A stretch of DNA of 64,000 nt from NCBI GenBank assembly GCA_963734545.1, contig CAVTHO010000009.1:287968-351967 (forward strand), given 5' to 3'. The DNA comes from an uncultured Spirochaetota bacterium (GTDB taxonomy: Bacteria > Spirochaetota > Spirochaetia > SZUA-6 > Fen-1364). The notes beneath the pieces were generated by a model, which was given only the letters and a program-made list of their open reading frames with translations, made no database searches and was not told the origin of the DNA. Numbering within the stretch: position 1 is the stretch's first letter; each line of letters begins with the position of its first letter. Positions 31,738 through 53,604 of the stretch are shown one piece after another. Both the position numbers and the translations under genes were made by a program.

Positions 31738-31739
31738 CT

Positions 31740-33446: not shown

Positions 33447-33608
33447 GTCATTCCTCCTGATCATGGCACGAATATGCTTCCGGGCCCCCAGGTGCCGTAC
33501 AGTGCCGAAAGTCATGGAAAAGTCACGGTGACCGGGGAGCTTCAGACGGATGGTCGGGGTGACACTTTTCAGCCGCCGTGATGTTGAAGTGATCAAAGGA
33601 GCCATCCA

Positions 33609-34256: not shown

Positions 34257-34268
34257 CAGCAGCTCCTT

Positions 34269-35232
34269 CTATGGTTGGCCTGGCTTCTCAGACAGCCAGG
34301 CAACCTTTTGCACTGACTCATGATCCATTCCGATTATGTCCCTGTAGAGCTCGGGCTTTCGCGCCATGGTATACCGGTAGCCGCCCGACTGCTGGAGTTT
34401 CCCATAGACGCAATTCCCGACGGCGACTTCGTTGTCGAATGATCTGCATTCAGCGATAATGTCGCCGAATGGATCGATTATCATCGAGCATCCATTTCTC
34501 ACCTGGTCATCGTCCATACCTATGGGATTCGTGAAAACTACATAGACCCCATTATCGTACGCTCTTGCCGGCAGCCATTTCATCAGCCATGCCCGGCCTT
34601 TCAATCCATCGAACTCACTCCTGAGCGACGTGGGATCCTTCTCCCTGTTTTCCCACAGTTTTGGCGATACAAATCCCGCGCCCGGCCGCGCCGAGGGAGT
34701 GCCCATTGTCACGTGAGGCATGAAGATGATGTTGGCGCCAAGCAGCGTTGTGGCACGCACATTTTCAATGACATTGTTGTCGTAGCAGACCAGGATTCCA
34801 CATTTCCACCCATTTATGTCAAATACAACATATTCCTGGCCGGCTTTCAAATGCGTGTTTATGAACGGGTGGATCTTGCGATACTTTGCCCTGAGGCCGT
34901 TTCCGTCGACACACACATATGCCTTATAGAGCTCATCCGCCGTGGTCTTTTCAAACAGCCCGGCAAGCACAACAATATTGTTCTGTCGGGCAATTTCAAC
35001 CAGTCTGGCTATGCTTTCTCCCTCTGGTATCAGCTCCGCCAGTTCCAGCATTTGCGATTTGTTCAACTTCATTGCAAACGTGTCAGCCGGTTATCGAGCA
35101 TTCGTGAAATGAAACTACCGCGGCCCCGGATTCGGATGCTTTCCGCGCCAGGCTGTTGATAAGGTCCAGATTGTACTTTTTATCGCCGCTCCTATGTTCA
35201 AATTGCGCCGCCGCGATCCTGAGGTCGTTCAT
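34269..35232 (-). CDS. Carbon-nitrogen hydrolase (nitrilase family), frameshift near 35080
   Basis: N-terminus IAAAQFEH...FHECSITG in the upstream frame, YRKIH and LVCYD downstream (E-K-C triad). Confidence 0.87.
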
Positions 35233-35247
35233 GATGGCTTCCTTGAC

Positions 35248-36099
35248 TCACCGGGCCCCAATCGCGTTGACGGCTGAAAGGACTATTCCTTTGAGGGCTT
35301 CCCTCACGGTCCCGCCGATGTCATGGGCCGGGCCAAACGCAGTTATCGCCAGTGCGACAACATTATAGGAAGAAACTGCCCACGCGAGAAGGCTCTTGAT
35401 CTCTTTTTCCAGCAACCCGCCTGGAGAGGCAAATCTATTGGCGTGGCCGACACCGGCATCCAATACATCCGCATCCAGATGGACATAAAGGTCCCCGGCA
35501 GGCGGCGCAGCCGCCGTCGAGATCTGGCAATCGTCATTTCTAAACTGCTCTGTAGTGACGACCCTGATCCTGCTCGATGCAAGCTGTTTTGCTTCTTCCG
35601 CATCGAGGTCTCTCGTGCCCACAAGAGTGACATGGTCTTCTTTGATGGCAAGATACCGCGAATCATTCGCCGACAGGCTCTTCCAGCATCGCCCGCATGC
35701 GATCGCAAGTGCCATCCCATCCAGGTACCCGCTCTGCGTTGTCTCAGGCGTGTTGAAATCCGCATGAGCATCGAGCCACAGCATGCTCATATCGTCACTG
35801 TGCAATCCTGACAGTGTTCCCGTCGCGGTCAGACAGTTGCCCGCAAGGACAACAGGGAGAGCACCGGATTGTACGGTCTCGGAGATTGCTTTTGACAACA
35901 GCGAGTTCAGCTTGAACGTCGACTGCGTATCGGTGAGCTGTTCGACATCACTGCAGATGATCGTCTTGCTGTCGACAGTGTGTCCGGATTCACTGAGAAG
36001 CCGACCGAGTCCAGAGCCCATCAAGCTTCCAGGGCCTTGTCCATGGCCAACGTTGTATTTGCCCATGTCGTAGGGGACAGAAACAAAGCATACGCGCAT
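35248..36099 (-). CDS. Arginase/ureohydrolase-family protein
   Basis: WLDAHADFNTPET and VHLDADVLD metal-binding motifs. Confidence 0.9.
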   Translation of the reverse strand: MRVCFVSVPYDMGKYNVGHGQGPGSLMGSGLGRLLSESGHTVDSKTIICSDVEQLTDTQSTFKLNSLLSKAISETVQSGALPVVLAGNCLTATGTLSGLHSDDMSMLWLDAHADFNTPETTQSGYLDGMALAIACGRCWKSLSANDSRYLAIKEDHVTLVGTRDLDAEEAKQLASSRIRVVTTEQFRNDDCQISTAAAPPAGDLYVHLDADVLDAGVGHANRFASPGGLLEKEIKSLLAWAVSSYNVVALAITAFGPAHDIGGTVREALKGIVLSAVNAIGAR

Positions 36100-36159
36100 C
36101 TTTTCCCTTATCAGTTTCTACTACCGAACACATGCTTGGTCAATATTGCGTGAAGGACG

Positions 36160-38604
36160 TCACGATAAGATACTGACTTCTCCCGTAAAACCGTCCAGCT
36201 CGACAACTTCACCGTCTTTCAGCCGTTTGGTGGCATCCTGCGTGTAGTAGATGGCGGGTATGCCCATTTCCCGAGCGATTATCCCCGGGTGGTCGAAGGG
36301 GGACCCGGCATCGAACACGAGACCGGCGATGTGCGCAAGGTATGGTTCGATATTGCAGTGGCCCTCTTCGAAGACCAGGATGCTCTTCTCCTCCAGGGTG
36401 AAGGTGGGGCTTTTCGGCATGCGCACCTTTCCCCGCACCTTTTTTTGCAGCCCCGAGACACCCTTCAAGACCGTCATGGGTTGGAGCTGCGGTTCTTCCG
36501 ATTTCTCTGCATGCTGAGGAGGCTTCCCGATGAACGTCGGCGGCTTCATTCTCTTTTGATCCTGGAAGATCGATCTTCGTTTTTCGATCTCCTGGCGAGA
36601 AACACCGCCCGCTCCGTTGAGAAGAGCTTTCAGCTCGTCGAGCTGCAGGAAGAAGATGTCGCCCGGCCTGCCGAGAAGGCCATGTGCCGACAGCCATCGA
36701 TCCGCCCTCTCCAGGGCGATATTCAGGTACGCATGCTGCATGAGGTCGATGTAATAGGCGTGATCATCGCTTACCAGGAACGCTTTCTCGGCCAGATCCA
36801 GCATACTCCGAAACTCCTTTTTTTCAGGTTCGGTCAACCGGGCGAGGATCTCAGCGGCCAGCCGCTCCTTGTTTTCGAGGGTCTTGTTCAAACGCTCCTC
36901 GTATTGCCCGATGTCCCGCCCAAGAGAGGACCGTACCCACCCCAGCACCACGCTCGGAAGGTTTTTCAGCAGAGGTGGAAATGTGAAATCCCTCAGGGGA
37001 TCGATGCTGATCAGGCCGAACTCCTCCAGGTATCGTTCGATTTCCCGCAGGAGGACCTTTCCTTCCTCGGACCTGGATAGTTTGGGATACAGCACCTCAT
37101 CGTAGGGATGATCCTTGAACAGCGCCTTCAGCTCATGCGTCCCATTGACCAGCCCGGCCATTTTCATGATCAATTCCCGGCTGCGCGCAAGGCGGCTCTG
37201 TCGAAATATCAGGTCGAAGTAGTCGGGAACGGAAAGCGCACCGATCTTGCTGTCGAAGTACTCCTTCAGCGTGTATCGAAAATCCGGCGTCCTGCTGTCG
37301 ACGGGTGCTCGCCCCCAGACTGCCTGCCAGTGAAGGGACTTGCTCAGGCACAGGAAGTCGAGGCTGTCTTCGATGAAGCGCATGAGCTCTGGAGGACTGC
37401 GGGCAGTCCGGACTTGCGCCTCCAGCCTTTCCCGAGACTCATTCAGGCGGGCCAGGACGAAGTCCTGAAAGACATTCCGGCCTTCCTTGAACAGCCCCAT
37501 CATCTTTTCGAGAAAAGCTGCACTTTTCTTCTCAGCTTCGTGCATCTCCTTCGGCCTGTAGTAGATGTATCCGTTCTGGAGAATGATCTCCATGTAGTAC
37601 TGAGACAACCCTGTGGTGTCGGCCCCCTGGTTATTCCCTTCATTCGCCAGGAGAACAATCTCCCGCTGAAGAGGCGTGAGACAGTATTGGAGGTCGTCCA
37701 GCCTCCACGTATACAAACAGTCGGCATCGTCCGTCCAGACTACCGGAAAGCGAGACTCACGGAATGTGGTGATCGGCCGCGACTGCAGGATATAGAGCTG
37801 ACTACCCCGTATCGTCCACTCGATGTCCTGATAAGCGTGGAACAAATGCTCGATCTCCGTCCCCGCTTTCTTCAACGTTCCCAGGACCTGCTCGCTCATT
37901 CGCGGAGCTTTGTCGGGAACAATGAATTGAGTGAGCGTGCCGCTTGACTTGTCCAGCCTGAAGAGAGACGCGGGCTTTCCCCCCCGCACATAGTCTGCGC
38001 AGATACCCTCCACGGCGTTGATCACCATCACCTCTGAATTCATCTCCACGGTATCTGCCGTAAAGAGAACTCCGGAAGGCCTGCCATTCATAAATGGTTG
38101 TACCACTACCCCCATCCTGAGGCTTTCCAGGGTAAGCCCATTTCGCACGATGTGCGCGAGCGCGCGGTCGTGATACATCGATGCATAGCATTTTCGAACA
38201 GCCCGCAACAAGTCGGCCCGGGAAGCGACGTCGATATACGACTGGAAGACTCCGGCCATGCTGTGCCACTCGCCGTCCTCACAGACAGCCGAGGAACGGA
38301 CAGCAAGCAGCCTTTCCGGGCTGAGTGGAATCAGCTCTTCATACACGCGTCCAAGCGATCTTTCCATTTCCGGAGGAATGGCGCACTCCAGAAGGAATTC
38401 GATGATCTCATCGTTCTTTTCCAGGTATTCCTCGTGTGTGAACGGAAATTGGTTGAACGAAAGAATGTGCTCGTAATCCTCGACTGACAGGGCGTATCCT
38501 GGCAGAATGGAAATCCCGGCACGCGTCATCTCTCCCAGCGCTGCTGCCTTGCTGCCGAACAGCAAAGCATGGTCTCGCTTCACATCTCCCAGGTGAGTAA
38601 TCAT
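36160..38604 (-). CDS. PEP-synthase-like / rifamycin-phosphotransferase-like enzyme
   Basis: N-terminal ATP-grasp (GSKAAALG, AVRSSA..ED..SMAG, QDIEW, ILQSRPIT), long helical middle, C-terminal swivel His domain (SPFDHPGIIAREMGIPAI, ELDGFTGEV). Confidence 0.85.
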   Translation of the reverse strand: MITHLGDVKRDHALLFGSKAAALGEMTRAGISILPGYALSVEDYEHILSFNQFPFTHEEYLEKNDEIIEFLLECAIPPEMERSLGRVYEELIPLSPERLLAVRSSAVCEDGEWHSMAGVFQSYIDVASRADLLRAVRKCYASMYHDRALAHIVRNGLTLESLRMGVVVQPFMNGRPSGVLFTADTVEMNSEVMVINAVEGICADYVRGGKPASLFRLDKSSGTLTQFIVPDKAPRMSEQVLGTLKKAGTEIEHLFHAYQDIEWTIRGSQLYILQSRPITTFRESRFPVVWTDDADCLYTWRLDDLQYCLTPLQREIVLLANEGNNQGADTTGLSQYYMEIILQNGYIYYRPKEMHEAEKKSAAFLEKMMGLFKEGRNVFQDFVLARLNESRERLEAQVRTARSPPELMRFIEDSLDFLCLSKSLHWQAVWGRAPVDSRTPDFRYTLKEYFDSKIGALSVPDYFDLIFRQSRLARSRELIMKMAGLVNGTHELKALFKDHPYDEVLYPKLSRSEEGKVLLREIERYLEEFGLISIDPLRDFTFPPLLKNLPSVVLGWVRSSLGRDIGQYEERLNKTLENKERLAAEILARLTEPEKKEFRSMLDLAEKAFLVSDDHAYYIDLMQHAYLNIALERADRWLSAHGLLGRPGDIFFLQLDELKALLNGAGGVSRQEIEKRRSIFQDQKRMKPPTFIGKPPQHAEKSEEPQLQPMTVLKGVSGLQKKVRGKVRMPKSPTFTLEEKSILVFEEGHCNIEPYLAHIAGLVFDAGSPFDHPGIIAREMGIPAIYYTQDATKRLKDGEVVELDGFTGEVSILS

Positions 38605-38619
38605 TTTGAATTCATCGTC

Positions 38620-39546
38620 CTATCTTCTTCGATAGACGTCGGTGCTTAGATACTTGAGGCCAGAGTCTGCCATGAGCGTGACCACCCTGGCGCCTGGTCC
38701 CAACTGCTCCGCGACTCGAATCGCGGCTACGATGTTCGCGCCGGAAGACGTCCCCGCAAAGAGCGCCTCCTCCCGCGCGATACGCCTCGCCATGTCCTTC
38801 GCATCTTCTGTTTTTGCCGGCAGGATATCGTCTACAAGCGTCGGCTCCCAGAGTGGAGGAGTGTAGCCGATCCCAACGCCTTCGATCTTGTGGGGGCCGG
38901 CCTGCCCTCCCCGCAACACGGAGGATTCCGCGGGCTCGATGGCAATGATCCTGATGCTCGGTTTGTGTCGTTTCAGCACGGTGGCGACTCCACGCAAAGA
39001 AGCCCCCGTACCCACGCAGTGAACGAAGGCGTCTATCTCCCCTTTCGTTTGGCTCCAGATCTCCTCGCCCAGCGAGTAGTAGCCCGCGATGCTGTCATGG
39101 TTGTTGAGCTGGTCTGTCCAGCAGGTGTGAGGCTCCTTGCTCAGCATACGGGCAGCTTCGACCATGTCCAGGATCAGCTTCTTGGTAGTAAGGCCTCCTT
39201 CGCTCGGGACGAGCGTGAGCCCGGCACCGAGCGCCGCCATGTGGTCCAGCTTTTCCTGGCTGAACGCATCCGAGCTGACGATCCGGAGACGATAGCCCTT
39301 GGCGGCGCAGACCAATGCAAGGGATGTCCCTGTGCTGCCGCCGGTGTACTCGAGGACCGTGTCACCAGGCCTCAGCCGACCATCCTCCTCCGCTCGGGAA
39401 ATCACCGCCCGGGCCATCCTGTCCTTGAGGCTTCCGGTGGGATTCTCCCACTCGAGCTTCACCAGGATGTCCGCACAACCGGGCGGAACGACCTTCTCGA
39501 GTCGAGCTATCGATGTGCCGCCAATGGCATTGAGAATCTCTGGCAC
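38620..39546 (-). CDS. Cysteine synthase family PLP enzyme
   Basis: KLEWENPTGSLKDRMA, VGTGA, HKIEGVG and GTSSGAN motifs. Confidence 0.9.
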   Translation of the reverse strand: MPEILNAIGGTSIARLEKVVPPGCADILVKLEWENPTGSLKDRMARAVISRAEEDGRLRPGDTVLEYTGGSTGTSLALVCAAKGYRLRIVSSDAFSQEKLDHMAALGAGLTLVPSEGGLTTKKLILDMVEAARMLSKEPHTCWTDQLNNHDSIAGYYSLGEEIWSQTKGEIDAFVHCVGTGASLRGVATVLKRHKPSIRIIAIEPAESSVLRGGQAGPHKIEGVGIGYTPPLWEPTLVDDILPAKTEDAKDMARRIAREEALFAGTSSGANIVAAIRVAEQLGPGARVVTLMADSGLKYLSTDVYRRR

Positions 39547-39548
39547 TG

Positions 39549-40307
39549 TTATGAGTCCTGCTTTTCCGCGATATAGAAAACGTATCCATAATACTCTGAA
39601 TAGCGCCGGTGGAGCTCCATTTCCTTTTCTTCAATCTCTAGTACCTCCAGGGCTTCGGCGTCATCCTGATGCCTGACTCTGAGAGTCGGCAGCTTCTTCA
39701 TTATGGGATTGTAGTATTCCCTCCACCAATCCTCTTTTGGAAGGGTGAAATGATGCAGCAGATGATAACCCGTGCTTTCTACCTTCCTCATGTTTTCTTC
39801 AACTGAGGTTATCGCAGGGTATGCCTCATTCCAGAACTGCCTCAGCACGTCCGGTATGTCCGGCCTGAGCCATGAAATCTCTGTGAAGGCAATTGCTCCT
39901 TTGCTCCTGAGGAGCGGCCTCCACAGTTTGAGCCCCACCTCGACTCCGATGCAGTAGATTGATCCTTCCGCCCATACGATGTCAAAGGAATCAGCTTTGA
40001 ATGGCAGCCTGGACATGTCGGCGAATGTTGGATGGATGATTTCCGACAGCCCTTTCCTCATGACATTTCGAGTAAGCTCGTCTATGTACGGGGCATGATT
40101 GTCCACTGCGACTACTTCACCGTGACTGATTGATGCCAGGCATAGAGTCTGCGCCCCTGGCCCGCAGCCGACATCGAGGATCCTTGGATGAGAAAACCTT
40201 TTTTCAAGGCAGGAGAATGCCTTCTTTGTCGATTTTGAGCTTCCCGGTCCTTCACGAGGCAAATCACGGTGCACTTCAAAGAACACTTCCATTTGTTTGT
40301 CTGTCAT
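39549..40307 (-). CDS. Class I SAM-dependent methyltransferase
   Basis: LPREGPGS, ILDVGCGPG and FDIVWAEGSIY motifs. Confidence 0.9.
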   Translation of the reverse strand: MTDKQMEVFFEVHRDLPREGPGSSKSTKKAFSCLEKRFSHPRILDVGCGPGAQTLCLASISHGEVVAVDNHAPYIDELTRNVMRKGLSEIIHPTFADMSRLPFKADSFDIVWAEGSIYCIGVEVGLKLWRPLLRSKGAIAFTEISWLRPDIPDVLRQFWNEAYPAITSVEENMRKVESTGYHLLHHFTLPKEDWWREYYNPIMKKLPTLRVRHQDDAEALEVLEIEEKEMELHRRYSEYYGYVFYIAEKQDS

Positions 40308-40332
40308 ACCTGCAGCCTCTCTCTGTGAGCCC

Positions 40333-41541
40333 TTACAGCGACCGTACCAGGGCGTTCAACGACTCTGCAACTTCAACAAGCTTTTGGCAGTCAATGAGGT
40401 CAGGGGTGTCCGTGGCTGTATGAGTCACAGTCCTCATCAGTTCGGCCGCGTATTCGGACGAGAAAGCCGCGGATGGAACCCGGCTCTGCACAAACATCAT
40501 GTGGTCCCCATTGAACCACTGTTCGCCTGCAACCAGGCCGTCAAAGCACATGAGAACTTCTTCCGCTTTCTTCACGAGCTGCGGGGAGCATTCATAGAAT
40601 GAGTATGACGACTTCCCGCGCTTGTAGCCGACGCCATCGATATTCACGGCAAGCACGATACCCGGGAGCTCACTCCCATACCGCCGCAGGTAGTCCATCT
40701 GGCCGCCTGCGCTGTAATGGTCTTCACCGTTGAGAGCCGCGATCTCGATGCAGTTCTTTCCTCCATAATCGGACAGCATTTCGGCGCAAAGAAGCAAGAC
40801 CCCTGTGCCGGAGGCATTGTCTGAAGCGCCGGGAGAGCCTTCGTAGGCATCGATGTGCGCGGTGATGACGATCTTCCTTGTCGCTCCCGGATTCAACCTG
40901 GCAATGACGTTTGCTGCACTCGACGGAATCCTGTGTGCGTCTATCCTCAAATGAAACGCCAAATCGCTTTTAGCCGCCAGCGCATCTCCCACAGTATCCC
41001 GACAATAGACACTTGGGATATCGAAATCTCCGTCTGCAATCAATGGAAACGGGTCCAACGCCCCTACCTGTCCCGGATTCTTCTTCGTGGCTGTGATTAT
41101 CGCCTCCGGCTTGCGGCTCTCCAACAGGGCGATTATCTTCTGGTGGTGCTCCGGATTGTAGAAGACAAATTTCTTTGGCATCAACTGCTCGGAGCAGATA
41201 GCGTCTCTCATGAGCAGGATCTTGCCCTTGCAGCTTGCACTTTCCAGCTCCTCAACTGTCGAGACGCAGATCAGGTCAGCCACGACATCGCATTCCGGAG
41301 AATAGGGACTATTATGGATTTCGAAAGTTTCTTCTCCATGTTCCAATACTGCACCGTGGCAGATGTAGTCGAGACACTTGAAAGGAACGGCTTCAGTCCT
41401 GTATCCATACAGACGGACTGTGTCTGCAAAGAAGCCGGTGGCTTTCTGGTTTCCCGGAGAGCCAGTTCGCCTGTTTGGCTTCACACCGCACAAAACCTTC
41501 AGGTAGGACTGCGCATTTGCGGCATAGTCGTTTTGTTTCAT
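40333..41541 (-). CDS. M28-family peptidase with PA-like insert
   Basis: AHID...PGASDNASG, NGED, NIDG and DHMMF motifs. Confidence 0.85.
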   Translation of the reverse strand: MKQNDYAANAQSYLKVLCGVKPNRRTGSPGNQKATGFFADTVRLYGYRTEAVPFKCLDYICHGAVLEHGEETFEIHNSPYSPECDVVADLICVSTVEELESASCKGKILLMRDAICSEQLMPKKFVFYNPEHHQKIIALLESRKPEAIITATKKNPGQVGALDPFPLIADGDFDIPSVYCRDTVGDALAAKSDLAFHLRIDAHRIPSSAANVIARLNPGATRKIVITAHIDAYEGSPGASDNASGTGVLLLCAEMLSDYGGKNCIEIAALNGEDHYSAGGQMDYLRRYGSELPGIVLAVNIDGVGYKRGKSSYSFYECSPQLVKKAEEVLMCFDGLVAGEQWFNGDHMMFVQSRVPSAAFSSEYAAELMRTVTHTATDTPDLIDCQKLVEVAESLNALVRSL

Positions 41542-41590
41542 AGACTACCGACAACCTTTCCACCGACCATCTAGTCCAGCCCCGGGCCAG

Positions 41591-42820: not shown

Positions 42821-42866
42821 GCGACTTTATCTCTGCCGAGCCATAGCTGACGCGGCTCTTTTCCGA

Positions 42867-43460: not shown

Positions 43461-43494
43461 GAACTCGTCATCGCCGCCTTCTTGCAGGCTGGAT

Positions 43495-43881: not shown

Positions 43882-43982
43882 GATTCACTCCGCACTGATT
43901 CTGGTAGCATGCGGGAAAGAAGTCAATGGTCAGTCGCCGATCAAAGATCCACATCGACAATCAAGCAACGCCGCCATATCAT

Positions 43983-45560
43983 TTACCATTCCTTAAGGAT
44001 AGGCCAGATTACCTCTTTGCTCATATTATTCTGCCGCACTCTGCACACGCATATGTAGTACCCGTACGGCCACAAAGGGTTCGCAACATAGGCTTTCTTT
44101 GCTATTTCCCAATAGCATTGGGATATCCGCCCTAGATCCGAGGTGACCGCTACTACGACATCCCAGGACTTCTCTCCTGGCCCCCAGAGATAGTACTGCA
44201 TGTGTCCGCTCACGGCGTGGGGAAGCCCGTACCTGGCGCCGTACAGATCGATTGCGCCCGCTTCATTGAACAATGATGCCCAGATCACGGCTTTCTCCCG
44301 GTCTTCCGGCGGCAGGCCGTCATACACCTCGGCGACTTTGTTCACCAATTCCTCCCAGCCAATTCTCATTGAGAAATGCCAGGGATACTGCGGTTTTTGA
44401 ATGGTGTAGTCCTTCACGGGCTTATAGAGAAACCCGAAGGTTCCGGAATATGCTGGCAATAGATCCAACGGAAGTATCGGCAGTGAAGCAGGAGCGACCA
44501 GGGCGCCTCCGGCCAGCAGGTATGAGACGCCGACAATTCCAAACGCTCTCTGCGATTTCATATGGGCGAGCTTCTCTTCGACGAATACCGCGCCGGCCGC
44601 CAGGAGCGGCATGAAGAGGTGAGCAAGCTCAAATACCCGGGCATGAAGCAGATAGACGACGACCATGGTGACGAGAAAGAAAATGCCGAAGAAGCTGTGA
44701 TACGTATCTCCGAAGCGCCTGAAGATGCGGTACAATCCGACGCCAAGTAAAGGCATGAGCAGCAGATTCATATTGAGCGATAGGTTGATGAAATACTCCG
44801 GAATTGAGTAATGGTAAAACCAGCGTGTATGCCCGGACCAGTATTCGAGAGTCGGCCAATGATTGGCGATCTCCCAAAACACCCACGGCGATATGACTAT
44901 AGCGAACAGCCCAACAGCGATCCACGGCCACGGCGTGAGCAAGTCCCTGCGGTGCTTTGTAGCGAGCAGAGCGATCAGGATGCCGGGCGCGGAGATAAGA
45001 ATAGTTGCCTTGGTCATGAAGGCTATCCCCGCAGCCAGACCGATGCTTACCCAGAGCATCTTGTTCCCCGTGCGTATGTAACGTACAAGAAAATAGAGAA
45101 ATACGGCGAGCGCAAGCTGATTTATGCCGTCGTAGGTGAAAAACGAGTTCGTAATGAGCCACAACGGGGTTATGATGAATCCCAGCGCTGCAACCGTCAC
45201 GGCGAAAAGCTTGCCGCCGAACTCCCTGGTGATGAGGCATACAAAAACGAGGGTCGCCGCGCCAGCGAGCGCGGGGAATATGTGGTATGCCAGCAAGGAT
45301 TCTCCCAACAGCGTGCGGCTTACTGCCACGAGTAGCGGCACGAGCGGCGGAAGGTCGAGGTAGCCGAAGGCGAGGTGCTTGCTCAAGGCGATTGTGTAAA
45401 GCTCATCGCCGAAGTAGCCGTAGTTCTGCGCCGTGAGCATATGAATCGCAAACTTCACGGCGGCAAAAGACGTGACCAGCAAGGCAAAGCCCGAAACGCC
45501 GAGAAACGACTTGCCGAGCTGCCCGGGTGGCGTGCGTCGGAAAGGGTGTATACCTGGCAT
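43983..45560 (-). CDS. GT-C fold (GT39/ArnT-like) membrane glycosyltransferase
   Basis: YGYFGDELY...LAFGYLDLPPL, many TM helices, GAID..G...GLP.AVSGH..Y.LWGPG. AGGAG RBS. Confidence 0.88.
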   Translation of the reverse strand: MPGIHPFRRTPPGQLGKSFLGVSGFALLVTSFAAVKFAIHMLTAQNYGYFGDELYTIALSKHLAFGYLDLPPLVPLLVAVSRTLLGESLLAYHIFPALAGAATLVFVCLITREFGGKLFAVTVAALGFIITPLWLITNSFFTYDGINQLALAVFLYFLVRYIRTGNKMLWVSIGLAAGIAFMTKATILISAPGILIALLATKHRRDLLTPWPWIAVGLFAIVISPWVFWEIANHWPTLEYWSGHTRWFYHYSIPEYFINLSLNMNLLLMPLLGVGLYRIFRRFGDTYHSFFGIFFLVTMVVVYLLHARVFELAHLFMPLLAAGAVFVEEKLAHMKSQRAFGIVGVSYLLAGGALVAPASLPILPLDLLPAYSGTFGFLYKPVKDYTIQKPQYPWHFSMRIGWEELVNKVAEVYDGLPPEDREKAVIWASLFNEAGAIDLYGARYGLPHAVSGHMQYYLWGPGEKSWDVVVAVTSDLGRISQCYWEIAKKAYVANPLWPYGYYICVCRVRQNNMSKEVIWPILKEW

Positions 45561-45645
45561 TCTAGCTCCTGACTTTAGGCAGAAGTTAACCATACCGTAT
45601 GTCCGGTTGTCCAGCATCCTGCTCGACGAACCTCGGCCGCCATGT

Positions 45646-45972
45646 CATGCACGCATCTGGGGATCATACTTCACTACGGCCGGCGCCATAGACGTACTGG
45701 GCCCCAAGTACGGGCTCCCGAACGCAGTGAGCGGCCATTTGAACCACTTCCTCTGGGGCCCGGGCAACAAGCCCTGGGACGTGGTGATCGCCATCGCCCC
45801 GTATCCGCATATTGAGATAATGAAGCTCTGCTATTGGGACGTCGAAAACAAGGCCTATGTCGCGAACAGCTTCTCAATGTCCTTCAATAAATACTATATA
45901 TCCGTACGCCGGGTGCCCAGGAATAATCTGAACAGGGAATCCATCTGGGCCATTCTGAAGTACTACTGGTGA
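45646..45972 (+). pseudogene. Inverted 3' fragment of a paralogous GT39-like gene
   Basis: IWGSYFTTAGAIDVLGPKYGLPNAVSGHLNHFLWGPG...SIWAILKYYW aligns with the C-terminus of 43983-45560. No start codon or RBS. Confidence 0.8.
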
Positions 45973-45986
45973 TGCGCTGCAGCATT

Positions 45987-47048
45987 TTACTGCTTCTTGT
46001 CGAACTTCATGTAGTTCCTGACCATCTTTCCGAATGCTTTGTCCTTCTTCCGTTTCTCTAGATAGGTCATCTCATAGTGCTTCGATTCTTTCATTAGTTT
46101 CAGGTAGCTCTCGTACCTCTCGGTGCTCAATTCGCCATCCGCCACGCTTGAAAGCACCGCACACCCCTTCTCAGTTGTGTGTGTACAATCAGCAAAGCGA
46201 CAGCGTTTTGTAATCGCGGAGATGTCACCAAAACTTTCCTCTATTCCAAGAGCAAAGCCCAGCATCCCCAATTCCCGCATGCCGGGCGTGTCGATGAAGA
46301 GTGCTCCATTGTCCAGGACAACCAATTGTCGTCTCGTCGTCGTATGTCGACCTTTGCCACTCTTCTCTCGCACAGGATTGGTAAAGAACTCTTCCTTCCC
46401 TACTAGTTTATTCAAGATAGTGCTTTTGCCGACTCCGGAAGACCCTATCAGACAGTAGGTTCTCCCTTTTTCTAGAATGTCCCTGAAGCGATCGTAGCCA
46501 GCCCCCGTTGCGCTGCTTAGCGGGATTACATCAATGCTGTGCTCTCTCCGTACTGCAGCGACCATTGATTCCAGGTTCGCCCCGTCAACAAGGTCGCACT
46601 TTGTAAGCAAGAGTATCGAATCGATACCTCCGTCTTTCGTCATTGCTATATATCTGTCAAGCCGATTCAGATTGTAGTCGACGTCACAAGACTGAACTAT
46701 GAACGCAACGTCGACATTTGCAGCAATTGGCTGGTAGTCGACTCTTATGCCCGAGGATCTCCGCCGCAGGATGGTTCTTCTCGGCAGTATTTCGTGCACA
46801 ATTGCGTGCGCACTCTTGTCATAATAGTCCACCAACACCCAGTCTCCGACACAAGGCATATCTTCGGCGGTCACAGCACAATACAACAGTCTGCCCGTAA
46901 GCTCGGCGGGAATCGATCCGAGCGTGCTTCCAATCATATAGCGATCTCGGTCAACCGCGATGACACGAGCTACATGGGTTTCAGCCAATAGGTTTCCCCC
47001 CAGTTTTTCTTGAAACCAGTCATCGTAGCCTAGATCTTCCAGATTCAT
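45987..47048 (-). CDS. rsgA: Ribosome small subunit-dependent GTPase A (accessory long form)
   Basis: OB fold, TKCD, GSSGVGKST, GRHTTT, DTPGMRE and CRFADCTH..EKGC. Confidence 0.93.
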   Translation of the reverse strand: MNLEDLGYDDWFQEKLGGNLLAETHVARVIAVDRDRYMIGSTLGSIPAELTGRLLYCAVTAEDMPCVGDWVLVDYYDKSAHAIVHEILPRRTILRRRSSGIRVDYQPIAANVDVAFIVQSCDVDYNLNRLDRYIAMTKDGGIDSILLLTKCDLVDGANLESMVAAVRREHSIDVIPLSSATGAGYDRFRDILEKGRTYCLIGSSGVGKSTILNKLVGKEEFFTNPVREKSGKGRHTTTRRQLVVLDNGALFIDTPGMRELGMLGFALGIEESFGDISAITKRCRFADCTHTTEKGCAVLSSVADGELSTERYESYLKLMKESKHYEMTYLEKRKKDKAFGKMVRNYMKFDKKQ

Positions 47049-47095
47049 GTAACGGCCCCCATGCGCACACTACCAGGTTGAACTCGTTGTTTGCA
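47047..47095 (-). repeat. Probable collapsed attC remnant
   Basis: Minus strand TGCAAAC-AACGA-GTTCAACC (R''-5 nt-L'') just after the upstream stop, and GTTACAT (R'-like) overlapping the rsgA ATG. No L' box. Confidence 0.45.
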
Positions 47096-47106
47096 TCCCT
47101 TCTCTG

Positions 47107-47823
47107 CTATTTATTATAAACTACCGGCATCTTAAACCGCCACTCTCTCCATAAACTTTCATTTATTAGCAAATCAGCCATAAAATGGCTTACATTTATT
47201 CTGCTGGTTTTTCCGGCATTGAATATTGGACTTCTCACTGGAGATTCATGCACTTCGTACGTACTATTAGTATCTTCGTTAACTAATGTATCCGGGCGTA
47301 CGGCTATCCATTCCATCTTCTCATTATCCTTTCCAATCTCTTCGTGTAGATAATCAGCAGCCCTAACATTGTCACGATGAGGGGGTAGAAGTAGTTTCAG
47401 GATTGATAGGATAATTCTTTCTCCTAATGAATTCTTCTCTCCTGTTATGCTATTTGTGTAGCCTGTCGTGCTCATAAGAATAAGCTTTACCTTTTTATCT
47501 CCCTTCTCCTTAACTATTATGCTGATTTTTCTTATTGTATCGGACACTAAATTACGTGGTTTCCCAAATATCCCTCTGATCGTAATATTATGACCAAGGC
47601 AAGAGACTATTGCATTACAATCTTGCAGGAGGCTGCTCATTTCTGAATCATTGAATTCGGCGATATTCCCTTTTTCGATTTCAACTAGTGGATTATCGAG
47701 CATTTCTGCCGATAGAATTGCCCGCTCCCTGACGACAACCCTGATATTGATTTGTCTTTTGATCAATTGCATGACAACTAATCTCCCGGTAGCGCCACTA
47801 GCTCCAAGAACTAATACTTTCAC
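47107..47823 (-). CDS. NAD(P)-binding oxidoreductase (atypical SDR, flavin reductase-like)
   Basis: VLVLGASGATG Rossmann motif, WIAVRPD. Noticeably AT-rich. Confidence 0.88.
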   Translation of the reverse strand: MKVLVLGASGATGRLVVMQLIKRQINIRVVVRERAILSAEMLDNPLVEIEKGNIAEFNDSEMSSLLQDCNAIVSCLGHNITIRGIFGKPRNLVSDTIRKISIIVKEKGDKKVKLILMSTTGYTNSITGEKNSLGERIILSILKLLLPPHRDNVRAADYLHEEIGKDNEKMEWIAVRPDTLVNEDTNSTYEVHESPVRSPIFNAGKTSRINVSHFMADLLINESLWREWRFKMPVVYNK

Positions 47824-48032
47824 ATCGCCTCCTATTGCCGGCCGCCAGCGTGTAATACTCCGTCACCACGTCCGCCGCAGGCTTCCTGGTCGTCTACCAG
47901 AATCGTCGTGCGGGCCGCAAACGTGAGATCCAGCACAAGAAAAAGAAAGACACCGGGATTCCTCATGAGCACCCCTCCGTGGACTTCTCCTGCGATCGAT
48001 TCCACCGACTTCATCCACCTCGTCAAGGCGTG

Positions 48033-48953
48033 CTATATCTTGCCGCTATGTTCCACAGTTATGACTACACTTCCTTTTTTGTGACCGTGTTCGACATATC
48101 TGTGAGCCTCGACGATTTGTTCCAGCGGATAGCGCCGATCTATGACCGATTTTATCTTCCCAGCTTCAATAAGTTTTTTAAGAAAGACCAAACCTTCAGT
48201 ACGTTGACGTTCGTTCGGTCCCCCTTTCATAATTGTCACGTAGGTCCCATTTGTAGTCAATGCCTTCCTGCATTTGGATAACGCGCTCTTGCCAACCGCG
48301 TCAAAGATGAGATCATAGCGCTCTCCTCTTCCCGCAGAATCCTCCTTGGTGTAGTCAATTACCATATCCGCACCAAGAGATTTCACCAATTCTGCATTCC
48401 TTGTGCTGCATACCCCGGTAACTTCTGTCCCATAGTACTTGGCAAGCTGTACCGCAAAAGTCCCAACGCTTCCAGAAGCTCCAATGATAAGCACTTTCTG
48501 TCCGCGCTGGATATTACCCTTGTCTTTAAGACAATATAAAGGTGCAATGCCCCCATAAGGAACGGCAGCAGCCTCCTCATAGGTCATGTTGGCTGGTTTT
48601 ATTGCCACCACCCCATCTTCGGACAAACATTTATACTCTGCATAGGCGCCGAAGCTAAAACCGCAAGATGCAAAGACTTGATCGCCTTCCTTAAACAATT
48701 TTGCGTTTTTGCCTACTGCTTCAACTTCCCCGGCCAAGTCAAACCCCAATATTTTTACTTTTATTGGCCTTATCAGACCATTATAAAGTCTCGCGGCAAA
48801 TGGATCGGCCTTTCGCATGCGCCAGTCCCCTGCTGTTACTGTTGTCGCATATACCTTGACCAGGATTTCATTGTCCCTGGGAACAGGTTTTCTTACCTCT
48901 TTGAGCTGAAGAACATCGGGAGGGCCATATTTCTCGTAAACTATTGCCTTCAT
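48033..48953 (-). CDS. MDR-family NAD(P)-dependent quinone oxidoreductase / alcohol dehydrogenase-like
   Basis: [30 protein letters not shown] and GHKKGSVVI motifs. Confidence 0.92.
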
Positions 48954-48970
48954 AAGTGTGAATCGCGCTT

Positions 48971-49864
48971 TCAGGTTTTTTTCAGCCATTTGTCGAAAAA
49001 ATCGAAAATGGCCTTTCGGGCCGCATTGTCTCTCATGTAATTCGCATGTCCCATACCGCGTTTGACCAACAGAGTATGAGACGCGCCAACTTCCTTCATT
49101 TTTGCATCCAGCAATTCCGCCTCGTGAAACGGCATCAGCACGTCCTTGTCGCCGTGAATAGTGAGGATCGGCGGATCATCGGCGCTCACGTAGCTCAACG
49201 GACTCGCCAGCCGATATCTGTCCTGCGCCACCCCTGGAGCGCCGCCGAGCAGATTCTCTACTGTTGTTTTCATTCCTCCCTCGTTCCAGAAACCGACCAT
49301 GTCAGTTGGCCCGCCGATGTTTACGACTGCCTGGACGCGGCTGGAGATCGAGAAGTCTTCTCCCTCTCCCTCCAGATCATCGGAAGGACCGGTCAAACCA
49401 AGGAGGAGTGCAAGGTATCCCCCTGATGAGAAGCCGATTGCTCCGATCCGATCCGGGTCGACCCGGTACTGCGCCGCGTGCGCGCGCAGCCAGCGTACGG
49501 CGCTCTTCACATCGTAGAGCTCAGCAGGAAATTGATATGAGACTTTGTTGTTCTGTGTGATCGTGATGAGTCGCCGGTCGATTGCGGCTGCCACGTACCC
49601 CCTCTTCGCGGCATTCGGAATGTCGTAATAGAGGGACTTGCGGTCGAGGAACCGGTCCTGATGGGCCCAGTCATCGATGATGTAAACGATCGCAGGGAAA
49701 GGTCCGTCTCCTGTCGCTGGCAGAGCGATGTCGAGCTTGAGAATCAGATCTCCCCTCTGGGCATACGTGATGTCGTCCTGCCTGATGAAGTCCGATTGCG
49801 CAAGCAGCGGGGCCTGAGAGAGGAAGGACAGCGCGAGGAACAGTGCGATTCCGAGATTTCTCAT
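48971..49864 (-). CDS. Secreted alpha/beta hydrolase (esterase)
   Basis: Signal peptide, [21 protein letters not shown] and GMGH. Confidence 0.88.
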
Positions 49865-49966
49865 GGCAAGCCTCCCCTGAACCATGGAACTATTCGGCTT
49901 TATCGTATCACTCAATTTGACTGGGTCAAGCTCAGTATCGACGGTTCAAGCAAAGAGCCGCTTGCC

Positions 49967-50872
49967 TTACTTTCTTCTAAATATGAACACAATTGATGAA
50001 CCCATCAAATACAAAGCTGCCCCAAGAAACACCAGCCCAGTAATGATTGTAAATGTTGATTTTGTCCACGGTTCGAGCAAGAGCATGAGTGCTATTGCGC
50101 CGACGCTGCCAACTATTGCGATGATCGCGGTTACAAGTTTCCTGGAAAAGACAAAGGGAATTGCTAGCGCGAACGCCAAGTCGGCAAGAACATTATTAAC
50201 GATGTAGGACACAGCCTCTTCTGGCGTGTTGCAGGCAAAGACGTTGAGAAGGTACCCCCCAAGCGACAATACGAGCAGAACAATCAAGACGACCGACAAG
50301 GTAGATGATGACTTCACTGCCCTTTGATCCTTTTGCTGTGTCCTTTTCCATTTCTTCTTCGGATATTGGGTCGCCCTGGTTAGCAGTGAAAGTGGGAGCA
50401 AGAGCGGCAATAGATAGAAAAACCTCCTGTATGTAGCCGACCTCGTAAGCTTGCCTTCCCATTTGTCAGCAGCGTCTTCAGCGTCGATATGTTGGCGAGC
50501 AATCGTACGGTGAATATGATGGCCGACTTCGTGAAAAAGTACTGAGCTGATACGCAATCTACGCATAAACCTGCGGCCTATTCTCATGCCACGGAAGATT
50601 TGATCTACAAGGATGACAATACCAGCGGCATGAGAAGGCGAAGCGTGTGTGTAGAAGCCTTTCACCTCTCCGAGAGCGTATCGTCTGCCCCTGGCAATTG
50701 CACGTTTCCTTCGTTCCTGTCTGTTCATTTCTCCCGATGTAGTTACGTAGACTTCCGAGAGTCCCTTCAGGTAAGCGCCTGGTATTGACGATAAGAGCCA
50801 CGTGATGTCTCTTTCGAATCCGCCAGATAGAGCTAAGGCTCCTGTGGAGCATCGCACATCAGGTATCCCCAT
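49967..50872 (-). CDS. Hypothetical protein: HExxH zincin-like N-terminus plus multi-TM C-terminus
   Basis: VLFHEVGHHIH, Arg-rich, followed by about four TM helices. AGAGG RBS. Confidence 0.6.
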   Translation of the reverse strand: MGIPDVRCSTGALALSGGFERDITWLLSSIPGAYLKGLSEVYVTTSGEMNRQERRKRAIARGRRYALGEVKGFYTHASPSHAAGIVILVDQIFRGMRIGRRFMRRLRISSVLFHEVGHHIHRTIARQHIDAEDAADKWEGKLTRSATYRRFFYLLPLLLPLSLLTRATQYPKKKWKRTQQKDQRAVKSSSTLSVVLIVLLVLSLGGYLLNVFACNTPEEAVSYIVNNVLADLAFALAIPFVFSRKLVTAIIAIVGSVGAIALMLLLEPWTKSTFTIITGLVFLGAALYLMGSSIVFIFRRK

Positions 50873-50883
50873 CTGATCGCCTC

Positions 50884-50912
50884 TTGACACCTTTCTGTCG
50901 CTATTGTACTCT
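50884..50912 (+). promoter_or_regulatory. Sigma70-type promoter for the HTH-tsf pair
   Basis: TTGACA-17 nt-TACTCT, 55 nt upstream of the ATG at 50968. Confidence 0.6.
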
Positions 50913-50967
50913 ATTGGGGAAATGAATGGTACTTTTATAGTCGTTTGTAGGATAATAGATCTTCTGC

Positions 50968-51414
50968 ATGAGTAGCGAACTACTTTCGGTGGACCAGGTG
51001 GCGCAGATACTCGGGCTCCACCCACGAACGGTCAGACGCTTCATTCGGGAGGATCGTCTCAAGGCGAAAAAGCTGGGAAAGGAATGGCGCATCCTCCGGA
51101 CGGACCTTGACGTACTCACCGGGAGGGAACCGAGCACCCGAGAGCAAGTGAGCGGTAGTATGCAGGTCTCGGCAGTGGCCGACGTGCTCGTCGCCAATCA
51201 GGAGGAAGCAACCCGCATCTTCAACTCCATGCTCGCCGCTGTCACTGCAAAAGGCCCAGAATACGGAGTCGTGCATTACCAGTCTCTCTACATCGAGGAT
51301 GACCGCAAGGCCCGACTCATGTTCTGGGGAGATGCTGCCTTCATCGGGCAAGCACTGATCACTCTGCAGAGAATATCGTCGACATTCGGACTACCGAGAG
51401 AGGGAAACTCGTGA
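50968..51414 (+). CDS. Excisionase-like (HTH_17) DNA-binding protein with C-terminal domain
   Basis: LLSVDQVAQILGLHPRTVRRFIREDRLKAKKLGKEWRI. Confidence 0.88.
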   Translation: MSSELLSVDQVAQILGLHPRTVRRFIREDRLKAKKLGKEWRILRTDLDVLTGREPSTREQVSGSMQVSAVADVLVANQEEATRIFNSMLAAVTAKGPEYGVVHYQSLYIEDDRKARLMFWGDAAFIGQALITLQRISSTFGLPREGNS

Positions 51415-52241
51415 GTGGGCTTGTGGCTGCGATCAAACAACTTCGAGAGAACACTGGTGCGGGCATGATGGATTGCCGGAGGGCGTTGGAGTCGACAGGT
51501 GGGGACATCGACAAGGCAGTTGTCGTTCTGAAAGAACAGGGGCTTCTTCAGGCTCGGGAGCGGCAAGACCGGGAAACTACGGAAGGTCGGGTGTTCCTCA
51601 AATTCAACGACGAGAAGGCGGTACTGCTCCACTTGGCGTGTGAAACTGATTTCGTCGCCAGGAACGCCAGTTTCATCCGCTTGGGAGAAAAGTGCCTGTC
51701 GCTGGCTTTTGAAAGCTCAAGCGTAGAAGAACAGCTGACTGCACTGATCGACGAGGCAATTGGCCGGATCAAAGAGAACATCGTAATGCGCAGTCTGAAA
51801 ACTCTTCGCGCAAACCAGAACGAACGCCTTTTCGCCTATGTTCACGGCGAAGGAAGGATCGGCGCGGTGATAGCTCTGTTCGCCCCTGATCCTGCCACCT
51901 GGGACTGCGAAGAGCCCCAGAAGTTCGCTGCTGATCTGACTCTACATGTCGCCGCCTTCGGCCCACTGTATCTATCACGAGACTCCGTAGATTCAACGTA
52001 CATGGAGCAGAAGGAAACCGAATTCCTTGCGGATGCACGGGCCCTCGGCAAGCCGTCGCAAATTATTCCAGGAATCGTGCGCGGAAAGCTGAACAAACAT
52101 CTTTCAAAGATCTGCCTGTTGGAACAAGCCTTCATACGTGATGAAACATCGAGTGTCGAAGAAGTGCTCCGCGGGCTCAAAGATAAAGGCGGTCCAAGTG
52201 TCCGTGTCAGTGGTTTCTTGTACCAGTGTGTCGGCCACTGA
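51411..52241 (+). CDS. tsf: Translation elongation factor Ts (stand-alone paralog)
   Basis: IKQLRENTGAGMMDCRRAL, CETDFVARN, YVHGEGRIG, LHVAA, GKP..I...IV.GKL and CLLEQAFIRD. GTG overlaps the HTH stop (GTGA). Confidence 0.93.
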   Translation: MSGLVAAIKQLRENTGAGMMDCRRALESTGGDIDKAVVVLKEQGLLQARERQDRETTEGRVFLKFNDEKAVLLHLACETDFVARNASFIRLGEKCLSLAFESSSVEEQLTALIDEAIGRIKENIVMRSLKTLRANQNERLFAYVHGEGRIGAVIALFAPDPATWDCEEPQKFAADLTLHVAAFGPLYLSRDSVDSTYMEQKETEFLADARALGKPSQIIPGIVRGKLNKHLSKICLLEQAFIRDETSSVEEVLRGLKDKGGPSVRVSGFLYQCVGH

Positions 52242-52582
52242 TCGTTCAACGTCGAGCTTCCCGTCATTTGTTCCTTCAGATCATAGAGACTCAACGGGTC
52301 AGGAACCGGAAACGTAACTGAGCCATCATTGTCCCACAGTCTCTTGTCCACCCTCCTCCCGCGCTCAATTGCCCATTGATAGATTTTCTCATTTCCTCCC
52401 GACTCTACGAGAAGAGGACTTCGCTCCGGGTTTTCCAGATAGGAAGGGACCAGAACAAACCTGAGCTTTCCATCGCAAACATATCTCTTGAAAGCCTCTA
52501 GCGTTAAGATCGAATCCGTGCCGGTGAAACCCCCGATCGTCATTACAGGGACATTTCTGTTCCCGTTGTAGAGCATCAGCAA
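52238..52582 (-). pseudogene. 5'-truncated C-terminal domain of a YkcB/YycA-like GT-C glycosyltransferase
   Basis: PVMTIGGFTGTDSILTLEAFKRYVCDGKLRFVLV...LYDL. No upstream part, abuts the half-attC. Confidence 0.6.
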
Positions 52583-52600
52583 AGCGGTGAACTATTACAG

Positions 52601-52620
52601 CATTCAGCGAGATGTTGGGC
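52601..52620 (-). repeat. Truncated attC (R'' and L'' half only)
   Basis: Minus strand GCCCAAC-ATCTC-GCTGAATG, 11 nt after the stop at 52632. Bases 52614-52626 match the cassette's other end (53599-53611, reverse complement) at 12 of 13 positions. Confidence 0.7.
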
Positions 52621-52631
52621 GCAATACAAAC

Positions 52632-53585: not shown

Positions 53586-53604
53586 ACGCGTCACCACCTA
53601 TTGC

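Follow-up and report, generated by a model that had tools for sequence, protein, structure and literature searches.

Truncated end of an integron cassette array and an attC-free gene tail that may contain former cassettes in an uncultured spirochaete

INTRODUCTION

In class 1 integrons, cassettes can become fused or fixed; the qacE-delta-1/sul1 3′ conserved segment is an example, and fusions form by deletion of attC sites. Those cases are single events, borne on plasmids or transposons and under drug selection. Here we describe an 18-kb, compact stretch of genes without attC sites (the tail, positions 34257-52620) that abuts the end of a cassette array in the chromosome of an uncultured environmental bacterium of the Spirochaetota (GTDB lineage SZUA-6; Fen-1364). 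It lies in a window of 64,000 nucleotides (nt), positions 287,968 to 351,967 of contig CAVTHO010000009.1 (assembly GCA_963734545.1), and coordinates given without a contig name refer to this window. The locus resembles fixed class 1 cassettes in that a cassette gene would have been retained because an adjacent insertion or deletion cut into its attC, but here the affected region is a multigene chromosomal tail.

Cury et al. (2016, PMC4889954) defined clusters of attC sites lacking integron integrases (CALINs) and suggested that highly degenerate attC sites signal a transition from capture to "definitive stabilization in the genome." With sedentary chromosomal integrons and CALINs as portrayed there, our locus shares a homogeneous family of long attCs, tens of cassettes, invasion by insertion sequences (ISs), and array pieces lying away from the integrase. 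It differs from the CALINs with degenerate attCs in that most of its junctions are attC-free, and attC-based tools would end the element at 52632. In addition, both attC losses that can be located are rearrangement junctions, and one gene is found with and without an attC in sister species.

Within the phylum, Wu, Doak & Ye (2013, PMC3607928) named Treponema as the sole spirochaete clade with integrons, described its cassettes as oriented like intI, and reported remnants (attC sites without intI) in T. phagedenis. The integron described here is likewise in the Spirochaetota. Unlike the Treponema integrons of that account, it belongs to a different, high-GC lineage, has attCs of ~130 nt that are also present in 19 of 24 other genomes of the family, and has an intI opposite in strand to the adjacent cassettes. 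A previous reading of the window from its letters alone (the original prediction) took the whole tail for old cassettes whose attCs had decayed with distance from the array, leaving the genes fixed as a pseudo-operon.

RESULTS

The array ends in a truncated attC

The window is the terminal 64 kb of contig C9 of a genome (G000) of 5.1 Mb in 10 contigs that is 89% complete. Direct repeats at 53.6, 56.0, 58.5, 61.1, and 63.9 kb form a single family of ~130 nt, and a profile made from them had 39 matches in the genome at E ≤ 10. Thirty-four matches exceeded 45 bits: 25 on C6 (mostly in a single array, positions 3-35475), two at the start of C5, two on C3, and the five in the window. The best 31 matches, once aligned, had the conserved ends of attC sites, one carrying an AAC core and the other a GTT core. 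We built a covariance model from these 31 attCs and ran it on the 64 kb with filters off. It placed the five window attCs, all on the minus strand, at 53597-53731, 55970-56100, 58468-58597, 61137-61266, and 63870-63999; cassette sense is the minus strand of the window. Matches to the model were found in 23 of the 41 genomes searched, two of which hold >80 copies.

The five attCs enclose four cassettes, and the array runs off the contig. Because C9 terminates within an attC identical to C6:3-132 and C6:24649-24778, the assembly evidently broke in this repeat. The genome has a single integron integrase gene, near the start of C5 (C5:2875-3807; TIGR02249, 404 bits against a cut-off of 265), on the strand opposite to the two attCs alongside it; no tyrosine recombinase was found on C9. 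The window array may be the distal part of the integrase-linked integron, to which it is not joined in the assembly, or a separate CALIN. By its five attCs spaced 2.4-2.7 kb apart, 53597-63999 is classed as a CALIN; the tail is not.

The last true cassette gene, hyp321 (52632..53597, minus strand), encodes a 321-amino-acid (aa) membrane protein that belongs to no family. Read from right to left, the window attCs scored 135, 105, 81, 120, and 70 bits, so the lowest-scoring full attC is the last one; it is followed by a stub and then by nothing. The stub (52598..52627, minus strand) is what is left of the attC of the hyp321 cassette: an R″ box with its flank (52614-52627) and a weak L″-like stretch, the remainder being gone. 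Its identity was assessed with a boundary test, in which the first 14 bases of a cassette (GTT plus 11) are compared with the 14 bases ending in AAC of the cassette's own attC, to which they are complementary. For hyp321, 53598-53611 and 52614-52627 were complementary at 12 of 14 positions, a value reached by 7 of 20,000 shuffles. Among 20 intact cassettes of the C6 array, 11 had at least 12 of 14 and 15 had at least 10 of 14. Therefore, 52614-52627 is taken as the true R″ end of this attC, and the half attC that had been predicted at 52601-52620 proved to be real.

About 15 to 25 bases past the R″ box, the sequence enters the final 104 to 115 codons of a YkcB/PMT_2-type glycosyltransferase gene. 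This C-terminal fragment, fused to the stub (52238..52582, minus strand), matches YkcB_C at positions 31-81 of 85 only and aligns with part of a longer gene in the related genome G001 at 62% identity across 104 residues. The junction is bridged by contigs of two sequencing runs, X1 (52423-52671, with no differences), which is possibly the sample of origin, and X4. The other array ends of the genome are alike: on C3, attCs of 115 and 114 bits are followed by a decayed one of 19.7 bits (C3:190638-190768) and then by none, and on C6 an attC of 120 bits is followed by one of 18.3 bits (C6:38086-38165).

The tail has the composition of cassettes and very short spacers

The original prediction noted an abrupt change in composition after 34256, which we confirmed. 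In 1-kb segments, the GC content was 0.65-0.70 at 28001-33000, 0.62 at 33001-34000, and 0.44-0.57 at 34001-53000; across the genome it averages 0.627 (standard deviation [SD], 0.037), and 4.7% of segments fall below 0.56. The cassettes that lie between attCs in this genome have a mean GC content of 0.51 (SD, 0.035; n = 26). The tail, with gene values of 0.39-0.61, thus resembles the cassette pool and is unlike the core (0.63). Its left border is the last core-like gene (33609..34256, plus strand; 215 aa; GC, 0.62; GC at third codon positions, 0.81), which has homologs of 69-74% nt identity in seven members of the genus; in G014, the nearest relative of G000 in the genome collection, just its final ~105 nt are left. 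A contig of run X3 spans 34001-34401 and bridges this border. A comparison among related genomes did not reveal a simple empty site; in G017, synteny breaks directly past the flank.

Counting open reading frames (ORFs) that are of good length or are supported by a family or homolog, 34257-52631 holds 17 genes, 15 on the minus strand and two on the plus strand. GC content jumps from neighbour to neighbour; for example, the PALP gene (0.61) is 2 nt from a methyltransferase gene (0.50). The description of the tail as functionally unrelated genes of varying GC, mostly on the cassette strand and separated by very short spacers, thus largely holds. Of the 14 junctions between minus-strand genes, 12 measure −19 to 101 nt and the remaining two 209 and 369 nt; since the attC is 126-135 nt long, there is no room for one at those 12. 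Tail genes are large (median, ~314 aa; maximum, 814 aa), versus 82-264 aa for most ORFs in the C6 array. Both gene fragments that had been pointed out are real, the one at 52238-52582 described above and one on the plus strand at 45631-45960, and both are C-terminal pieces of GT-C glycosyltransferases.

Searches inside the tail found no attC

Apart from the five attCs, nothing in the window, tail included, scored above 7.4 bits with the covariance model. Because the same model detects decayed sites of 18-20 bits at the other array ends, this silence signifies absence and not divergence alone. A relaxed nhmmer search of the tail (E ≤ 100) gave chance-level matches only, and half-site matrices found no half-site above background there. 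Gapped alignment to the attC consensus of five spacer stretches, and of the leaders of an RsgA-like gene in three relatives, was equalled by 58 to 366 of 500 shuffles. Thirteen of the 14 tail junctions have no attC remnant of any kind.

A collapsed attC had been proposed at 47047-47095, and it failed every test. It had no covariance or relaxed nhmmer signal, its half-sites ranked 756 and 1282 of ~128,000, its gapped alignment was equalled by 203 of 500 shuffles, and it formed no hairpin (z, +1.9). Its right half is a leader of ~27 nt upstream of the RsgA-like gene and is conserved in all four genomes having that gene. The idea of a decay gradient fared unevenly: the array does end in its weakest attC and then a stub, but the interior junctions carry no series of remnants, and the losses that can be located are rearrangement junctions.

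Four further procedures were uninformative. DNA folding z-scores were dropped, as the five true attCs could not be separated from shuffles (z, +0.7 to −4.5; spacers, −0.9 to +1.9). A generic scan for the R″/L″/L′/R′ pattern was discarded after it recovered none of the five true attCs and gave nine matches in the tail versus 15.6 in shuffles. Rfam at gathering thresholds had no match in the window, which is uninformative for attC, and leader and trailer lengths could be taken from just four intact single-gene cassettes, too small a sample.

An RsgA-like gene is found with and without an attC

The most direct evidence of a cassette past concerns a divergent second copy of an RsgA-like GTPase gene (45987..47048, minus strand), identified by its family match and its orthologs, whose product is 38% identical to the housekeeping RsgA encoded on C7. 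Its ortholog in G014, located when the whole tail was compared at the DNA level with the 25 genomes of the family, is 88% identical in nt, and there a full attC (78.5 bits, in sense orientation) begins 6 nt past the stop codon and is followed by a BD-FAE gene. This attC has a complete R″-to-R′ structure in the canonical cassette layout. In the window, homology to G014 stops within ~10 nt of the stop codon, and the expected place of the attC is occupied by an inverted C-terminal piece of another PMT_2 paralog (45631..45960, plus strand, recognised by its similarity to PMT_2 proteins). In G007 (79%) and G008 (68%), the RsgA-like gene lies just beyond the last attC of an array and has no attC behind it. 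The gene thus adjoins attC arrays in all four genomes that have it (45987-47048 in the window and L021 8605-9666, L023 6137-7258, and L025 4284-5345 in the relatives). The G014 islet, which consists of a methyltransferase gene, an IS110 gene, RsgA, the attC, and BD-FAE, sits where contig C4 of G000 has 153 nt.

Among 36 attCs, the G014 RsgA attC (L021 9672-9805) and the window attC at 53597-53731 are reciprocal best matches. They are 70% alike, versus 64% and 58% for the next best, and have a specific central loop in common. From this reciprocal match, the common ancestor probably had the RsgA-like gene next to that site, and the pair would later have been split in G000 by a rearrangement.

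Today, the window attC at 53597-53731 follows an antisense gene for a 711-aa protein of the beta-lactamase family, not RsgA. The G014 order RsgA-attC-BD-FAE is a circular permutation of the window order (attC ... BD-FAE ... RsgA). For an integron, a low-GC second copy of a ribosome-biogenesis GTPase is an odd cargo; four species of the genus keep it beside such arrays, with 66-89% aa identity.

Two genes near the RsgA-like gene have paralogs in cassettes

Next to the RsgA-like gene lie genes, assigned by family match unless noted, for an NAD_binding_10 protein (47107..47823, minus strand; 238 aa; GC, 0.39), a Zn-dependent alcohol dehydrogenase family protein (Zn-ADH; 48033..48989, minus strand; 318 aa), a BD-FAE esterase (48971..49915, minus strand; 314 aa) whose gene overlaps that of Zn-ADH by 19 nt, and hyp352 (49967..51025, minus strand; 352 aa), an ORF assigned to no family. 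On the plus strand follow an HTH_17 protein (50968-51414; 148 aa) and an accessory EF-Ts-like protein (51411-52241; 276 aa), the start of which overlaps the HTH_17 stop.

Zn-ADH is 48% identical to the ADH of a true cassette (60003-60956). BD-FAE has paralogs of 43-47% identity at C6:33170-33973, between two strong attCs, at C6:43645-44383, at C3:190924-191658, directly past the 19.7-bit attC, and on C10. A DUF4180 gene in the attC-free tail of G008 is 69% identical in nt to a gene just downstream of the attC at C6:35347-35475 in G000. The claim that old cassettes were fixed here therefore stands in part: the RsgA ortholog is a cassette in G014, and BD-FAE and Zn-ADH have cassette paralogs, but the left block of the tail, described below, shows no trace of cassette boundaries.

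NAD_binding_10 and hyp352 had no homolog in five relatives. A homolog of the former, 67% identical, occurs in one 3.2-Mb genome (G357) of another family in the same class, where it is flanked by two copies of a repeat of ~60 nt (L067 9617-9677 and 11759-11992). No attC of the G000 family was found near NAD_binding_10 homologs at eight loci of the phylum, a weak result because the model is family-specific.

The EF-Ts-like protein is 40% identical to the housekeeping EF-Ts on C7, and in five relatives it matched housekeeping copies only. It belongs to an accessory group of 23 database clusters (272-281 aa, 56-91% identical), none of which has an EF-Ts_N Pfam mark; the group is distinct from spirochaete housekeeping EF-Ts (42-47%). 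PADLOC assigned the tail methyltransferase to mad2 and the HTH protein to mad1 at the domain level only; as the two genes are 10 kb apart, they form no MADS system.

The left block is a mosaic

The left block (34269-43881) has nine genes, all on the minus strand. The first three encode a carbon-nitrogen (CN) hydrolase (34269..35232; Pfam CN_hydrolase from profile position 51), which is frameshifted with an open frame at 34269-35072 only, an arginase-family protein (35248..36099; 283 aa; Pfam Arginase, 1e-30), and an 814-aa protein with PPDK_N and PEP-utilizers domains (36160..38604) in the layout of rifampicin-phosphotransferase/PigC-type kinases (the PPDK-like gene). Next come the PALP (cysteine-synthase-like) gene (38620..39546), a class I S-adenosylmethionine-dependent methyltransferase gene (39549..40307), and two genes for M28 peptidases, M28a (40333..41541; 402 aa; assigned by homologs) and M28b (41591..42820; 409 aa), which are unrelated beyond the family level. 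Last are two genes assigned to no family, hyp197 (42867-43460; 197 aa; GC, 0.42) and hyp128 (43495-43881; 128 aa; GC, 0.47).

The CN hydrolase, arginase, and PPDK-like genes are found next to the same ABC-transporter flank in G014, as are the CN hydrolase and arginase genes in G002. These three genes are 78-84% identical in nt to those of G014 and G002, and the flank itself is 81-87% identical; at the protein level, the CN hydrolase is 86% identical to those of both relatives and the arginase 84%. Part of the left block predates the divergence from G014 and G002. In G014, the CN hydrolase and arginase genes have exchanged places relative to G000 and G002 and keep their orientation. Compared with its intact counterparts in G014 and G002, the CN hydrolase gene carries one additional base near 35084; this base was seen in the assembly, and read cover there is low. 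The PPDK-like gene is intact in G000 and split in two in G014, with 79-86% aa identity. Both the frameshift and the broken G014 gene are signs of relaxed selection.

In G004 and G006, more distant homologs of the CN hydrolase and arginase genes occur separately and have no attC. Over four relatives, none of six loci with homologs of these two genes had an attC within the retrieved DNA. The expectation that homologs of tail genes would be flanked by attCs thus held for RsgA in G014 and failed for this pair. A search with the PPDK-like protein against the contigs of the genome collection found it in G014 only, and M28a and hyp197 had no homolog in five relatives. The 120 relatives listed for M28a are mostly ~400 aa and 65-93% identical; among them, the five named by organism are Anaerolineae-type metagenome-assembled genomes (MAGs) and one Methanosaeta. 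At 17 metagenome loci with M28a homologs, eight of them at least 7 kb long, no other tail protein had a match nearby (E ≤ 1e-6), and no attC of the G000 family was present, the latter a weak negative given the family-specific model. M28b belongs to a separate M28 lineage with best matches of ~50-54%, some of them in Spirochaetia MAGs. In one database protein of 647 aa, a methyltransferase is fused to an M28a-like domain. We found no ortholog of any left-block gene in an attC-bounded cassette.

Related strains differ by whole genes at the spacers

Between the left block and the RsgA-like gene lies a gene for a 544-aa PMT_2 (GT-C) glycosyltransferase (43983..45617, minus strand; family match). 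Over codons 44-544, it is 90% identical in nt to a gene on G001:C121 that lies beside IS91- and IS66-type genes and has no attC. PMT_2 paralogs are also found on C4 (two), C3, and C10 of G000. The inverted fragment at 45631-45960 matches residues 437-542 of the neighbouring PMT_2 protein at 50% identity. We considered whether the two PMT_2-type fragments of the tail are arms of one inverted repeat; they are mutually dissimilar, which rules this out.

Contigs from related strains, 90-95% alike, came from runs of two studies. The runs each cover a small share of the tail (0.05-0.17), and uncovered parts are uninformative. In contigs of runs X2 and X3, position 36147 is joined to 39541, which leaves out exactly PALP and the PPDK-like gene. 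In one related strain, the 34-nt spacer between hyp197 and M28b (42826-42859) holds 1,119 extra letters. Related-strain contigs also have a shortened spacer between the Zn-ADH and NAD_binding_10 genes. Run X3 has an opposite-strand joint (45429/45610) beside the inverted fragment. Because M28a occurs elsewhere without its tail neighbours and gene content varies among strains, the block is a variable mosaic and not a conserved operon.

IS481-, IS30-, IS66-, IS21-, IS110-, and IS91-type genes are present at or near these loci in G000, G014, G008, and G001, and the IS481 and IS30 copies in the C6 array and the window offer many substrates for rearrangement.

Other features of the arrays

The window cassettes include a frameshifted IS481-family copy with inverted ends of 44 nt (58603-59940), an IS30-family gene (61357-62292), and an IS66 TnpB gene (62198-62554). 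Another cassette gene (56565-57638, minus strand) encodes an NHL-repeat beta-propeller of five or six tandem units of 165-168 nt that are 61-87% alike. The C6 array (C6:1-38200) contains, within its cassettes, five 408-aa IS481-family genes and three 347-aa IS30-family genes. Beyond the end of this main array (C6:42300-46700), three or four attCs in reverse orientation surround a gene for a Xer-like tyrosine recombinase of 295 aa, which does not have the signature of integron integrases (150 bits; cut-off, 265). A small second array lies at C3:184000-196500, where the last attC is followed by BD-FAE and, 3 kb further, by PMT_2. On C10, BD-FAE and PMT_2 are 2.5 kb apart and without attC.

DISCUSSION

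On balance we lean, a little beyond even confidence, towards a composite history in which the tail is the attC-free distal flank of the cassette array of a large chromosomal integron in this uncultured, 62%-GC spirochaete. The array would have been cut at 52598-52627 by a deletion or rearrangement that fused the R″/L″ end of an attC to the middle of a PMT_2-type gene. The next 6.6 kb (45987-52620) most likely consists of former cassettes that could no longer be excised after loss of their attCs: the RsgA-like GTPase, the NAD-binding protein, Zn-ADH, BD-FAE, the 352-aa protein, and the inverted HTH/EF-Ts pair. RsgA is the single direct case, and its attC would have been replaced by the inverted piece of another PMT_2 paralog. 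The left 9.6 kb would be an older plastic island of nine co-oriented genes acquired independently. Its strand bias, packing, composition, and modular variation are what cassettes would be expected to show, and it may have a cassette past. Because the attC losses that can be located are junctions against PMT_2-type fragments, these losses appear to have been structural, by deletion, inversion, or recombination among repeated PMT_2 genes or IS copies, and not the result of slow point decay. We infer loss of the RsgA attC rather than gain because we know of no way for a gene to acquire an attC in place, and deletion is trivial.

Several observations weigh against this history. Direct evidence of a cassette past exists for one of the 17 tail genes only. 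In the identity-based tree, ((G000, G014), G007), G008, an attC follows RsgA in one genome of four, and parsimony favours a gain in G014 over three losses. When the boundary test was applied to 15 tail genes, none passed; the sole match, at hyp128, is a palindrome that spans start codons. Foreign types of attC could escape the covariance model, which recognises the attC family of G000 specifically. The cassette paralogs of BD-FAE and Zn-ADH are just 43-48% identical to the tail genes. At three places in G000 (C9, C3, and C10), a BD-FAE gene has a PMT_2 gene no more than 5 kb away, and this pairing could reflect a functional module and not a cassette history. A single strand with tight spacing would also fit ordinary operons. 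For the left block, no attC was found in 25 kb from the loci of the leftmost genes in G014 and G002. Finally, the link between array and integrase is unassembled, the single intI being on C5 and the array on C9.

The original prediction in its full form, in which all ~17 genes at 34257-52620 are old cassettes whose attCs were deleted serially, oldest distally, until the genes were fixed as a pseudo-operon, seems to us unlikely. It would account for the co-orientation of 15 of the 17 genes, their compact spacing, gene-wise jumps in GC, and overall composition matching that of the cassette pool, and for the distal decay of attCs at all three array ends. The presence or absence of whole genes at spacers among related strains, left block included, the swap of CN hydrolase and arginase with orientation kept, and the occurrence of M28a alone in other genomes also agree with it. 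Against it, no left-block gene has an attC or boundary relic, and none has an ortholog in an attC-bounded cassette; the three leftmost genes occupy the same site in G014 and G002 without attC, with homologs bare at six of six loci; and the tail genes are large compared with most ORFs of the C6 array.

It is equally doubtful that the tail is an ordinary genomic island or plasticity zone that abuts the array, with genes that arrived through ISs or homologous recombination and never had attCs, and that the RsgA-attC unit of G014 was created by a rearrangement joining a neighbouring attC to the gene. The many IS genes at or near these loci, the islet in G014 at a place where G000 has 153 nt, the attC behind RsgA in one of four genomes, the absence of boundary relics, and the 90% identity of the PMT_2 gene to a G001 gene beside IS elements are what such a history would leave. 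Less easily reconciled with it are the G014 attC 6 nt past the RsgA stop, in sense and complete from R″ to R′ as in a canonical cassette, and the position of RsgA next to attC arrays in all four genomes with the gene. The R″ stub, moreover, shows that the array was truncated at the edge of the tail, and the paralogs of BD-FAE and ADH are cassette genes.

A still more tentative idea is that the attC-free tail is a second kind of modular array that goes on exchanging whole genes at its short spacers without attC. We raise it because of the joint absence of PALP and the PPDK-like gene in related strains, the 1.1-kb insert in a spacer, the swapped order in G014, and the circular permutation of RsgA, attC, and BD-FAE, which hints at a possible circular intermediate. 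That the left block (34269-43881) is a single operon for a small-molecule pathway, acquired whole, is very improbable: spacers of 2-60 nt on one strand, plausible enzyme chemistry, and the database fusion of a methyltransferase to an M28a-like domain suit it, but M28a has none of these neighbours at 17 loci, the fused methyltransferase is just generically similar to ours (29% over 112 aa), GC ranges from 0.42 to 0.61 by gene, strains lack PALP and the PPDK-like gene or have an extra 1.1 kb, the CN hydrolase is frameshifted in G000 and the PPDK-like gene broken in G014, and CN hydrolase and arginase are apart in G004 and G006.

Returning to the composite history that we favour, stabilisation of cassettes by attC loss has already been proposed (Cury et al., 2016, PMC4889954), and our locus is an ordinary, well-documented example of it. 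It does not overturn current views but documents the step proposed there: a truncated attC is still visible at the break, and the last site has decayed at each of three array ends in one genome. The extra RsgA-type GTPase gene, which one species carries as a canonical cassette and three others as an immobile gene, is a concrete case that can be checked. Were the tail still turning over without attC, attC-independent gene turnover, or even attC acquisition, would take place in distal integron tails, which would then not be graveyards. Tools defined by attC stop at the last site, and genes that integrons hand to the chromosome therefore go uncounted. The locus also shows that a spirochaete family other than that of Treponema commonly carries large integrons with attCs of ~130 nt.

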